Source: Candidatus Odinarchaeia archaeon (GTDB lineage: Archaea; Asgardarchaeota; Odinarchaeia; Odinarchaeales; Odinarchaeaceae). Taken from it: a stretch of DNA of 9,980 nucleotides. Where the stretch lies: assembly GCA_029856525.1 (NCBI GenBank), contig JAHQXC010000050.1, positions 1 through 9,980 of the forward strand. The letters run 5' to 3'. Positions 1,574 through 4,849 of the stretch are shown in pieces; the stretch's first letter is position 1; each line of letters opens with the position of its first letter. Made by a program: the position numbers and the translations under genes. The notes beneath the pieces were generated by a model. The model was not told the DNA's origin. It did no database searches and worked only from the letters and a program-made list of their open reading frames with translations.

Positions 1574-2272
1574 TTAGAATAATATTCTTATATGCATGTT
1601 TTTCTTACTAATCCACTCCGCGCGCTTATTTTTAACTAGAATGTTAAAAATTTTTTTAAAGTCTTCTTTCGACAGCATGTGGAAGTTATCCGGGCTTTCC
1701 TCTAAGTCGATTATCTCAAAAAAAGTCAGCTCTGTTCTACCCTTTTTTAAAGCCCAATTATAGATTACTTCACTCCAATCATTGTAGCTTCTCCAAAAAA
1801 CCCGGATACTTTTACGCTCTTTATCCGTGTACTCGCAGAATTTCCTGTTAACGAGATTATTTAAGATGAGTGTTAACGCTTTACTCTTGTTTTGCAGATT
1901 TGAAAATGGTTTCTCGCTCATAAGCTCAACTAAAGTTATACTATGCAGTTTATTAGTTTTAAACCATTGAAGAGTGAAATCACTCCACTCGTTTAACCAG
2001 TCTTCGAAATCTTCAGTTTTAGTTGGAATAGTATACATCCAAGGATATCGTTCACATTGAACTGCCCAATTAAACCCTTCTCCAGGTATTTGACGGCTTT
2101 CATGTTTTATTACGCTCTCATTTTGTTGAACTGGAATCTTCTTCTCATTCTCTTCTAGATCATCTTCTATATTTTCCTCTCCGGCTTCTAATTCCTCTTT
2201 CAGAATGTTGATCTCCTCTAGCAGCTTATCTCTTCTCCCTCTATTCTTCAACCGCCGCCTGTTAAGCTCCAC
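1574..2272 (-). CDS. vps25: ESCRT-II subunit Vps25 homologue with a ~65-aa charged N-terminal extension
   Basis: FNWAVQCERYPWMYTIP resembles human FEWPWQYRFPPFFTLQP. WSDFTLQW, PFSNLQNK, IRVFWRSYNDWSEVIYNWA, LTFFEI, FHMLSKEDF and KRAEWI match the tandem WH domains (WRRPEEWGKLIYQWV; FTLYEL; FHGLDE; KAEII). GTG start with GAGG 8 nt upstream. Confidence 0.92.
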   Translation of the reverse strand: MELNRRRLKNRGRRDKLLEEINILKEELEAGEENIEDDLEENEKKIPVQQNESVIKHESRQIPGEGFNWAVQCERYPWMYTIPTKTEDFEDWLNEWSDFTLQWFKTNKLHSITLVELMSEKPFSNLQNKSKALTLILNNLVNRKFCEYTDKERKSIRVFWRSYNDWSEVIYNWALKKGRTELTFFEIIDLEESPDNFHMLSKEDFKKIFNILVKNKRAEWISKKNMHIRILF

Positions 2273-2297
2273 GCATAAACCCTCATATTAAATATTT

Positions 2298-3449
2298 CTA
2301 ACTCTTATATTCTGCAGCCCATTCCTCATATTTTTTAATTTCTTCACGGGTTACTACAGGTTTTATCCTATTCAGTGAAGTTAATAAATCATCCATATTT
2401 ACAGGTCGAGGTTTACAGTTGAAGTCTTCAAGTAACCCTTGCCGGTCTAGTTCTCTTATAGGGTTCATAATAGATTCACGGCATATTAACGCTATATCAG
2501 AGGAAGTGTATCCTTCAGATTTCTCGGCGAGTTCATCGAAGTCAACATCTTCATCCAGCTCTACGCCTTTTAAATGATATTTGAAAACTTCTCTTCTAGC
2601 CTCTCTATCAGGTAAAGGAATGTATATTCTTTTTTCGAATCTACGCCTGAAGGCTGGATCTAAATCCCATGGCCGATTTGTAGCACCTAAAACCATAATC
2701 TGACCAGCTTTATTCTCTTTTATACCGTCCATTTCAATAAGCATCTGGGTTTTTAATCTTCTCTCACCTCCAACCTCTTCGTTATCTCTCGTAGAGGCTA
2801 TAGCGTCAATTTCATCGATGAAAATTATCGAAGGCGCATTCTCTCTAGCTGTTTTAAAAAGTGTTTTAATAGTTTTCTCAGATTCGCCAAGCCATTTAGA
2901 TACGAGTGAAGCTGCATCCGCGCTGAAAAACATAGCTTTAGCCTCGCTAGCCACAGCCTTCGATATAAAAGTTTTACCGCAACCCGGTGGACCGAATAAA
3001 AGTATCCCCTTCCAAGGTGTTCTTGAACCTGTGAAGAGATCCGGTCTAAGCATAGGGAGTATTACAGCTTCTCTGAGCGCTTGTTTCGCTTCTTTAAGGT
3101 CAGCTACATCACTCCAGCGGACAGACGGTTTCTCTACTAGAATAGTGTTTGAAACATTCTGGGTTATCTCTTTTTCAGAATCTTTTTCATTGAATAACTC
3201 ATCTGTTTTAATATTAACGGTAGCCGTTCTTCTAAGCTCTTTAGCACGTCTAATATATTGTTCAGCTGTCTTTAAACAAATATTTTTAAGCGTTGAATTA
3301 TCGGTCACCTTGGAGAGTTTAATAAGGACGTCCGCTGCTTTAAGATAGTGTTGAGAAGCCTGCTGCCATTTATTATTTTTATCCAATCTAACAGCTTCCT
3401 TAGCTATTCTAGACGCGGTTTCGAATAATTCACGGCTCATATCCGACAC
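2298..3449 (-). CDS. vps4: Vps4/CdvC AAA+ ATPase (MIT domain, AAA cassette, C-terminal helix)
   Basis: N-terminal MIT (AKEAVRLDKNNKWQQASQHY...QYIRRAKEL). EKPSVRWSDVADL, Walker A GPPGCGKT, pore loop SKWLGESEK, Walker B IFIDEID, Vps4-type arginine finger FRRRFEKRIYIPLP, and C-terminal EEIKKYEEWAAEY. Start is GTG 3449 or ATG 3440. Confidence 0.96.
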   Translation of the reverse strand: MSDMSRELFETASRIAKEAVRLDKNNKWQQASQHYLKAADVLIKLSKVTDNSTLKNICLKTAEQYIRRAKELRRTATVNIKTDELFNEKDSEKEITQNVSNTILVEKPSVRWSDVADLKEAKQALREAVILPMLRPDLFTGSRTPWKGILLFGPPGCGKTFISKAVASEAKAMFFSADAASLVSKWLGESEKTIKTLFKTARENAPSIIFIDEIDAIASTRDNEEVGGERRLKTQMLIEMDGIKENKAGQIMVLGATNRPWDLDPAFRRRFEKRIYIPLPDREARREVFKYHLKGVELDEDVDFDELAEKSEGYTSSDIALICRESIMNPIRELDRQGLLEDFNCKPRPVNMDDLLTSLNRIKPVVTREEIKKYEEWAAEYKS

Positions 3450-3569: not shown

Positions 3570-4181
3570 ATGCCTATTTTAGAGCGGCTTATATCATGGT
3601 TGAGAGGCCCTAAATTATCTGACTTGAATAGAAAACTAGAGGTTGTATGCAGGAAACTTGAACTTGAAAGTTTAAGATTGGATAAACAGGCTAAAAGTAA
3701 TCGAGCTAAAGCTAAAAAAGCACGTTTAGAAGGGGATGAGCAGGCTGCTAAAACATATATAAACCACTATCTTAAATTCAAGAACTCTATTCTTGAAATA
3801 GACTCGTATAGGCTTGGAATAGAAGGGCTTTTAACGGATCTTAGAATGAATGAAGCTGTCAGCGATGTTTCAAAAATTCTAGGGAATCTTAAATATGTTA
3901 TAAACATCGTTAAAAACAGGATTAGAATTCCAGATTTAACTAAAACACTGGAAGAAATAGATAGAAGCATGAAGCATATTAGCGGAGCTAAAGATTTAGC
4001 TGAAACCCGGATTCTATCTATGACTAAAGTAAGCCAGATTCAACAAGAGGATGTTCAAAAGGTTTTAAACGAGATAGACCAGGAGATCGCGGTTGAAGCT
4101 GAGAAATCCCTGCCTGAACCTTCAGGTAAGATCTCCGAACTGGAAAGGGAGATTGAGAAAATGAAGGAGTCTAATGTTTAA
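3570..4181 (+). CDS. ESCRT-III subunit, A-type (Vps2/24/46-like, Snf7-fold)
   Basis: N-terminal amphipathic helix MPILERLISWLRG. Basic helical hairpin (AKKARLEGDEQAAKTY). RIPDLTKTLEEI resembles Vps2 NLPQIQKIMMEF. Acidic C-terminus with SLPEP and a MIM1-like LEREIEKMK. Confidence 0.88.
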   Translation: MPILERLISWLRGPKLSDLNRKLEVVCRKLELESLRLDKQAKSNRAKAKKARLEGDEQAAKTYINHYLKFKNSILEIDSYRLGIEGLLTDLRMNEAVSDVSKILGNLKYVINIVKNRIRIPDLTKTLEEIDRSMKHISGAKDLAETRILSMTKVSQIQQEDVQKVLNEIDQEIAVEAEKSLPEPSGKISELEREIEKMKESNV

Positions 4182-4207: not shown

Positions 4208-4849
4208 TTGGGTTTTTTAAGAAAACTATTCCCTAGTAGAAAGAAATCTAAGGATGAGATACTCGCCGAACTTAGAGCTACTATAAATAGATTCACTTTA
4301 ATAAGCAGACAGTATTATAATAGAGCTGTTGATAGCAGGGATAATGCTAAAAAATGTTTAAGACAAGGAGATGTTGAAACCGCTCGCAGTCAGCTTAAAC
4401 GTTGGAGTAAATATATTGCTCGTTTTAAAAGATACCAGCAACAGGTTGATATATTAGAGGATACTATTGAAAGCATTCACTCCGCTGAGGATGCTGCGAC
4501 AATGCATAAAGCTCTCGAATCAGCTAATATATTATTGTCTAAGTCAGTTGAATTTTTAACTATGGATAAAGCTATTGAAACTAGAATGGAAACCCAGGAT
4601 TTAATTAATGAGATAGAGGCTAAGCAAGAGGAGCTTTCACGGGCTCTTGAAATAGGCGTTGAAGATGAATCTTTCATTGACAGGGAGCTTGAAAAATTAC
4701 AGAACGAGGTGGCTGTTGAAGCAGCCGCCTCTCTGCCTGAGACGCCTAGTGAAACACCTCTAGAGTTATCTGAACGTGACAGAATTAAAAAAGAGGTTGA
4801 AGAGTTGAAAAAAGCGCTTTCAGAAGAGAATTTAGAGGAGAAAGAATAG
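4208..4849 (+). CDS. ESCRT-III subunit, B-type (Vps20/32/60 / Snf7-like)
   Basis: TTG start with a perfect GGAGGT at 4196-4201. MGFLRKLF amphipathic start. Snf7-like segments LRATI, ARSQLKRWSKY, LEDTIESIHSA, EELSRAL and IDRELEKLQNE. MIM2-like SLPETPSETP (compare CHMP6 ELPEVPSEPLP) and a terminal helix RDRIKKEVEELKKAL. Confidence 0.9.
   Translation: MGFLRKLFPSRKKSKDEILAELRATINRFTLISRQYYNRAVDSRDNAKKCLRQGDVETARSQLKRWSKYIARFKRYQQQVDILEDTIESIHSAEDAATMHKALESANILLSKSVEFLTMDKAIETRMETQDLINEIEAKQEELSRALEIGVEDESFIDRELEKLQNEVAVEAAASLPETPSETPLELSERDRIKKEVEELKKALSEENLEEKE

Follow-up and report, generated by a model that had tools for sequence, protein, structure and literature searches.

The first 4.85 kb of the window, by which I mean the whole analysed stretch of 9,980 nucleotides, contain a complete Asgard-type ESCRT cluster of six genes, as judged from open reading frames and Pfam matches. 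The genes for a Vps28-like protein (85-807), Vps22/EAP30 (821-1552), ESCRT-IIIA (3570-4181) and ESCRT-IIIB (4208-4849) are located on the plus strand, and vps4 (2298..3449) and vps25 (1574..2272) on the minus strand. Vps4 contains Pfam MIT (residues 10-73), AAA (residues 149-279) and Vps4_C domains, while vps25 encodes an ESCRT-II subunit of 232 amino acids and starts with GTG. The closest database relatives are Odinarchaeota, and the cluster itself has been described before (Hatano et al. 2022, PMC9192718; Makarova et al. 2024, 10.1101/2024.02.06.579148). As the preliminary description of this DNA had stated, vps4 is followed after 25 nt by vps25, both genes having the same orientation. All 41 sampled Asgard loci (40 loci fetched around Vps25, L031-L070, plus the present one) show this order, the two genes being direct neighbours on one strand with vps4 first, which agrees with the synteny published by Hatano 2022 and Makarova 2024. 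In these loci the ESCRT-III genes, vps22 and vps28 are often located away from the vps4-vps25 pair. If the longest ORF is taken for each gene, GTG or TTG is the start codon of five ESCRT genes out of six in the window (vps28, vps22, vps25, vps4 and the ESCRT-IIIB gene); as vps4 has an ATG at codon 4, some of these starts may be located a few codons downstream.

The product of vps25 matches the Pfam family ESCRT-II (PF05871) with 61.4 bits (cut-off 27). Its residues 66-232 match the Odinarchaeum Vps25 deltaN structure (PDB 7pb9, E = 4.9e-96), and human VPS25 (3cuq_C) matches the same core (E = 8e-14), which carries the N-terminal F-x-W...Y-P-W motif and is confidently predicted by AF2 as a tandem winged-helix fold (block-mean pLDDT 86-96). 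The alignment of the human protein begins with its residue 4 at residue 66 of the query, which supports the statement of the preliminary description that the N-terminal extension (residues 1-65, 2078..2272, minus strand) is missing in eukaryotes. The open frame of vps25 begins after a TAA at 2288-2290, and its first start codon is the GTG at 2272, preceded at a distance of 7 nt by a Shine-Dalgarno-like GAGGG (2280..2284, minus strand). All seven vps25 loci from the Odin order have a GAGGG or GGTGA box at this same place, followed after 6-7 nt by a GTG or TTG start. The only other start codons are a TTG at codon 8 and an ATG at codon 79, with no ATG, GTG or TTG in between. M79 is part of the conserved FNW..YPWMY segment of the core, a segment that aligns to the first residues of the human and Odin Vps25 structures. 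With a Shine-Dalgarno-like box and a non-ATG start upstream, and M79 within the core, a true start downstream of the helix described below is rejected, and the extension is translated. The orthologue from Ca. Odinarchaeum yellowstonii LCB_4 (PDB 7PB9; 84% core identity, same gene order) has the same extension and the same helix (KEELLEQINLLKKEL, locus L031). Its full-length Vps25 was expressed and found to be soluble and folded, while crystals were obtained only after removal of residues 1-58; the function of the extension is not discussed in that study (Hatano et al. 2022, PMC9192718).

N-terminal extensions, ranging from 55 to 144 amino acids, are present in all 41 sampled Asgard Vps25 proteins, and their length and sequence vary widely across lineages. 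That Asgard Vps25 (cog.003176) carries additional N-terminal subdomains is already known from the work of Makarova et al. (2024), who describe some of them as steadiness-box-like and do not mention a likeness to MIT-interacting motifs (MIMs), while a 2025 preprint calls the extension of the MK-D1 Vps25 unstructured. In the protein studied here, the extension has three parts: the head is polybasic, a single amphipathic helix comes next, and a tether that is acidic and disordered leads to the core. The head (residues 5-14, RRRLKNRGRR, 2231..2260, minus strand) contains the best 15-aa window, with a net charge of +7, and outside this window the extension has a net charge of -11. The core of the helix (residues 14-28, RDKLLEEINILKEEL, 2189..2233, minus strand) displays a hydrophobic stripe of L17, I21, L24 and L28, with K25 at +8 and a charged polar face. 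AF2, run with an alignment of 11 sequences, assigns residues 3-29 to a helix, though at low confidence (block-mean pLDDT 43-54), and gives no secondary structure for residues 30-60 and a pLDDT below 50 for residues 31-57. The tether comprises residues 30-65 (2078..2185, minus strand). Pfam contains no family for this extension, nor for those of the Loki-type and sister-family proteins, in searches with E up to 10 that returned sub-threshold coiled-coil noise only, and no Snf7 match was found. A steadiness-box-like helical hairpin, comparable to the core of Vps23, Vps28 and Vps37, was considered and rejected: unlike the cases of Makarova et al. (2024), the studied protein is predicted by AF2 to form a single helix followed by disorder, and residues 1-66 gave no Vps23_core match even at E = 10. 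In the Loki-like Vps25 proteins L043, L063, L064 and L066, a second conserved helix is located directly before the core (for example IESELQILEEEIVGE or IEKELQSIESEIVIE), and these extensions of 120-144 amino acids may therefore form a helical hairpin.

The helix is conserved where the tether is not. L17, E19, I21, L24, K25 and L28 are invariant in Vps25 of the four genus members, and the sister family within the order has kept the register of the helix (RIKEELKELKEEV) at an overall identity of only 33%. Among genus members, 3-5 synonymous and 7-10 nonsynonymous codon changes were counted in the helix, against 2-3 synonymous and 21-22 nonsynonymous changes in the tether. The invariant stripe, the kept register and these counts show that constraint acts on the helix and not on the tether. 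The idea put forward in the preliminary description has survived two of the checks named there, the one for a start downstream of the motif and the one for conservation in related Vps25 proteins. Similar helices occur at residues ~12-35 in Loki-like Vps25, and all matching helices begin at residues ~12-22. About 70% of the sampled Asgard extensions are without a comparable match, so that the role of the helix, whatever it may be, is lineage-specific. The N-terminal module of Vps25 is thus real, translated and partly conserved, and the helix is solidly established as a conserved feature within the genus. Opposed to any role stands the view that the extension is a charged, helix-prone spacer of low complexity, and that its likeness to other ESCRT helices is due to compositional chance. 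The highly variable length and sequence of the extensions across Asgard and the low AF2 confidence for the helix would agree with this. However, the stripe and K25 are invariant where most tether positions differ, the register has survived down to 33% identity, and the start of the helix (residues ~12-22) is kept across the Odin and Loki-like lineages; I consider the absence of any specific function quite improbable.

The preliminary description had drawn attention to a resemblance between the helix and the C-terminal tail of ESCRT-IIIB, which it called a near-copy. Its sequence data are correct: positions 2165-2233 (minus strand) encode residues 14-36 of Vps25 (RDKLLEEINILKEELEAGEENIE), residues 190-210 of ESCRT-IIIB read RDRIKKEVEELKKALSEENLE (4775..4837, plus strand), six residues are identical in the core of 15 amino acids (R, D, E, L, K and L), and ESCRT-IIIA ends with LEREIEKMK. 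The term near-copy, on the other hand, is too strong. A gapped local alignment of Vps25 residues 1-65 with the ESCRT-IIIB tail scores 45, where composition-preserving shuffles score 35.3 +/- 5.8 (p = 0.07), and the comparison of the extension with the last 35 amino acids of ESCRT-IIIB yields a shuffle p of 0.03; such pairwise values are also what a chance likeness within a functionless spacer might produce. The sequence EEN(I/L)E, proposed as a shared part of the motif, is specific to Vps25 of the studied genome and absent from that of three genomes of the same genus, and was discarded as such. The two stretches show no similarity at the DNA level (p = 0.74), which indicates that nothing was recently copied between them. 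Open frames that start with ATG (357 kaa) contain 68 instances of the loose pattern [LIVM]xxE[LIVM]xx[LIVM][KR], and a stricter pattern, formulated after the fact, occurs seven times; as the pattern was defined from the very sequences being compared, these counts are not used as a statistic.

The C-terminal helix of Asgard ESCRT-III proteins, of both the A and the B class, is strongly conserved and reads x-[S/T/D]-[D/E]-L-E-x-E-[I/L]-x-x-L-[K/R]-[K/E]. I built a position matrix from 37 such C-terminal tails only, with the K/E/L-rich composition of the Vps25 extensions as background. The best site of the genome is the C-terminal helix of ESCRT-IIIA (ISELEREIEKMKES, residues 188-201, 4131..4172, plus strand) with 26.3 bits, and the second-best is found in the MIM1-like helix of ESCRT-IIIB (residues 190-203) with 20.0 bits. 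Residues 14-27 of Vps25 reach 9.5 bits, whereas shuffled sequences average -3.2 bits (p about 0.004). The sister-family helices score 10-12.8 bits and the Loki-like ones 13.5-20.4 bits, while the three orthologues from the same genus reach 11.7, 3.1 and 0.2 bits, the value of 3.1 bits belonging to the LCB_4 protein. Among 86 representative extensions (clustered at 50% identity), six score at least 9.5 bits, against 0.26 expected from shuffles. However, when the extensions are reversed, which keeps both composition and helical periodicity, 9.5 bits or more are still reached in two of the 86 representatives and in one of the 41 loci, and at 6-8 bits the reversed counts equal the forward counts. 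In the genome-wide search (401 kaa), 15 sites score at least 9.5 bits and the Vps25 helix ranks 15th, behind unrelated proteins such as Rrp4 (13.8 bits), PadR (11.7 bits), Roadblock/LC7 (11.2 bits) and TFE-alpha (10.1 bits). That reversed and unrelated sequences match equally well is the observation to be expected from compositional chance, and the likeness of the Vps25 helix to the MIM of ESCRT-III appears to be mostly what any K/E/L-rich amphipathic helix would give; the case for specific mimicry, as far as it can be made from sequence, is weak. Two C-terminal helices attain 11-12 bits against the same matrix, TEELERILKALKES in an acidic protein of 246 amino acids without Pfam family (G000 C37:23666-24403, plus strand) and TEDLKAALGELEKS in a Roadblock/LC7 protein (G000 C51:3377-3847, minus strand), and both matches, despite their C-terminal position, are probably due to chance.

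In eukaryotes, Vps4 is not known to be brought in other than via the tails of ESCRT-III. A rather doubtful possibility, put forward in the preliminary description, is that the Vps25 helix acts as a MIM1-type ligand of the Vps4 MIT domain (residues 1-80, 3210..3449, minus strand; Pfam PF04212, 41.4 bits over residues 10-73), which would be the reader of the helix and of which 39 Asgard sequences were aligned. In this case Vps4 would be directly recruited or sequestered by ESCRT-II, or would extract ESCRT-II by taking up the acidic tether into its pore. Several features point in this direction. The hydrophobic residues at i, i+4 and i+7 and the Lys or Arg at i+8 that characterize MIM1 are present as L17, I21, L24 and K25, in a segment that AF2 predicts to be helical with low confidence, and the full register of Vps25 (i, i+4, i+7 and i+11 with Lys at i+8) is that of the ESCRT-IIIB tail (IKKEVEELKKAL). 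The sister-family helix RIKEELKELKEEV resembles the ESCRT-IIIB tail of its own lineage (KIRRELEDIKKGL), Loki-like Vps25 proteins match the scores of true tails (20.4 bits), and the shuffle p of about 0.004 for the 9.5 bits of the studied helix, obtained with a matrix of tails only, is low. As in the MIM1 of ESCRT-III proteins of the Vps2/24/46 class, a short amphipathic helix lies at one end of the chain and is connected to the rest by a flexible linker, in a protein encoded beside a Vps4 with MIT domain. The topology is nevertheless a mirror image, since MIM1 is located at the C-terminus of a Snf7-family ESCRT-III subunit and the present motif, predicted from sequence, at the N-terminus of an ESCRT-II subunit.

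Position by position, the agreement with the tails is mixed. MIM1 has a conserved charged specificity residue at i+3, which is Arg in eukaryotes, and an acidic residue ahead of the first Leu. In Asgard, nearly all 37 ESCRT-III tails have Glu at +3, where the four Vps25 proteins of the genus have E, E, Q and T and five of eight Vps25 proteins within the order have Glu; the studied protein has E20 here, and in addition D15 before the first Leu. The +1 position, usually Glu in the Asgard tails, is Leu or Met in the genus, where instead the +2 Glu is invariant. As Vps25 keeps the +2 Glu and not those at +1 and +3, the conservation of its polar face differs from that of the ESCRT-III tails. These substitutions count against a MIT ligand, as do the scores of 3.1 and 0.2 bits of two orthologues from the same genus, the reversed extensions that reach 9.5 bits, with equal counts at 6-8 bits, and the four unrelated proteins at 10-14 bits. 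The adjacency of vps4 and vps25 in 41 of 41 loci, which at first sight favours a direct contact, is also found in lineages without the motif and is therefore not specific evidence for Vps4 binding. A complex prediction of the Vps4 MIT domain (1-85) with Vps25 residues 1-66, made without controls, resulted in a score of 0.16 and a mark of 0.32, values that speak neither for nor against binding.

In the literature, MIM1 motifs have been predicted in the Asgard Vps2/24/46 proteins, with no mention of Vps25 (Lu et al. 2020, PMC7240154). The available text on the systematic reciprocal two-hybrid screen of Hatano et al. (2022, PMC9192718) gives Vps4-ESCRT-III and Vps25-ESCRT-IIIB pairs but reports no Vps25-Vps4 pair, even though the Lokiarchaeum Vps25 used in that screen carries LKKELEKLK. 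That a short MIM-type motif outside ESCRT-III can recruit Vps4 has a precedent in the HCMV mimic recruiting VPS4A (PMC11218997); such cases, however, are eukaryotic or viral and come with binding data, whereas the Vps25 motif is predicted from sequence. I found no proposal of a MIM in Vps25, and the idea of a direct contact between Vps25 and Vps4 is new with respect to the literature found. At rather long odds, the helix of Odin- and Loki-type Vps25 may function as a MIM1 that binds the MIT domain of Vps4, which would either be recruited directly or strip off ESCRT-II via the acidic tether. If true, it would represent a wiring of ESCRT-II to Vps4 that disappeared in eukaryotes together with the extension of Vps25, and it would give a function to a segment that is present on nearly all Asgard Vps25 proteins and has been cut off in structural studies.

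The most widespread feature of the extensions is not the helix but the basic head. A 15-aa window of at least +4 is present in 25 of the 41 extensions, with an acidic remainder (median -6), and most Asgard extensions open with a polybasic, KEKxRKK-like head, which is commoner than the MIM-like helix. Eukaryotic ESCRT-II binds to membranes by means of a basic N-terminal helix of Vps22. With this precedent, and with a charge of +7 here, the head, assisted by the helix, might form a membrane or electrostatic tether that keeps ESCRT-II attached to acidic partners, either archaeal lipids or the tails of ESCRT-III, standing in for the eukaryotic Vps36 GLUE domain and the Vps22 H0 helix, in which case the likeness to a MIM would be incidental. 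Published analyses detected no homologue of Vps36 in Asgard genomes (PMC9192718), in line with such a substitution. The head (residues 5-14, +7) fits a basic or hydrophobic amphipathic segment of the H0 type, poor in acidic residues, such as Vps22 H0 or the N-terminal anchor of ESCRT-III, but the helix at residues 14-28 does not: its net charge is -2, its polar face is acidic (E19, E20, E26 and E27), and its stripe is one residue wide and devoid of aromatic residues, unlike membrane-inserting helices. Moreover, the invariance of L17, I21, L24, K25 and L28 next to a variable head would be left without explanation, and I regard a membrane tether as an unlikely account of the extension.

Instead, I propose that the helix of Vps25 is a tethered docking helix, a reading to which I would assign a probability of about one half. 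The stripe of L17, I21, L24 and L28 would fit a groove between helices of a different ESCRT component. The two Vps25 arms of ESCRT-II would each present such a helix, which the basic head would keep close to the membrane or to acidic partners. The module is translated, as seen from the GAGGG box and its counterparts in seven of seven Odin-order loci; it has a three-part architecture, for which AF2 predicts a helix at residues 3-29, disorder at 30-60 and a confident core; and its stripe is invariant, with a kept register, while the tether drifts. The recurrence of the helix in Loki-like Vps25 at 13.5-20.4 bits, the six of 86 representatives against 0.26 expected from shuffles, the mirror-image topology with respect to the ESCRT-III tails and the crystallisation of the LCB_4 protein only without residues 1-58 are all consistent with a helix that docks on a flexible arm. 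Against a docking helix it can be held that AF2 confidence is low (block means 43-54), that the extension has no Pfam family, that no partner emerged from the analysis, and that a charged helix of two to three heptads could also be a spacer or an element of weak self-association.

I infer that the docking helix binds to a protein, and likewise which protein that could be. The MIT domain of Vps4 is the best single candidate that can be named, even if the odds are clearly against it, and the ESCRT-IIIB core, for which the helix would be a tail mimic, and the helical bundles of ESCRT-I and Vps22 are together about as likely. Even without Vps4, a docking helix on each Vps25 arm could link the Odinarchaeial ESCRT sub-complexes, between which Hatano et al. 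(2022, PMC9192718) point to a link that is as yet unidentified.

In one genome of the same genus (G024), the predicted Vps4 (L033:4979-6634) is 551 amino acids long, compared to 383 in the window. The difference is due to an insert of ~165 amino acids at the start of the AAA domain, where residues 177-327 match Intein_splicing with 31.4 bits, below the cut-off of 35.8; the insert resembles a mini-intein placed at the P-loop region of Vps4.
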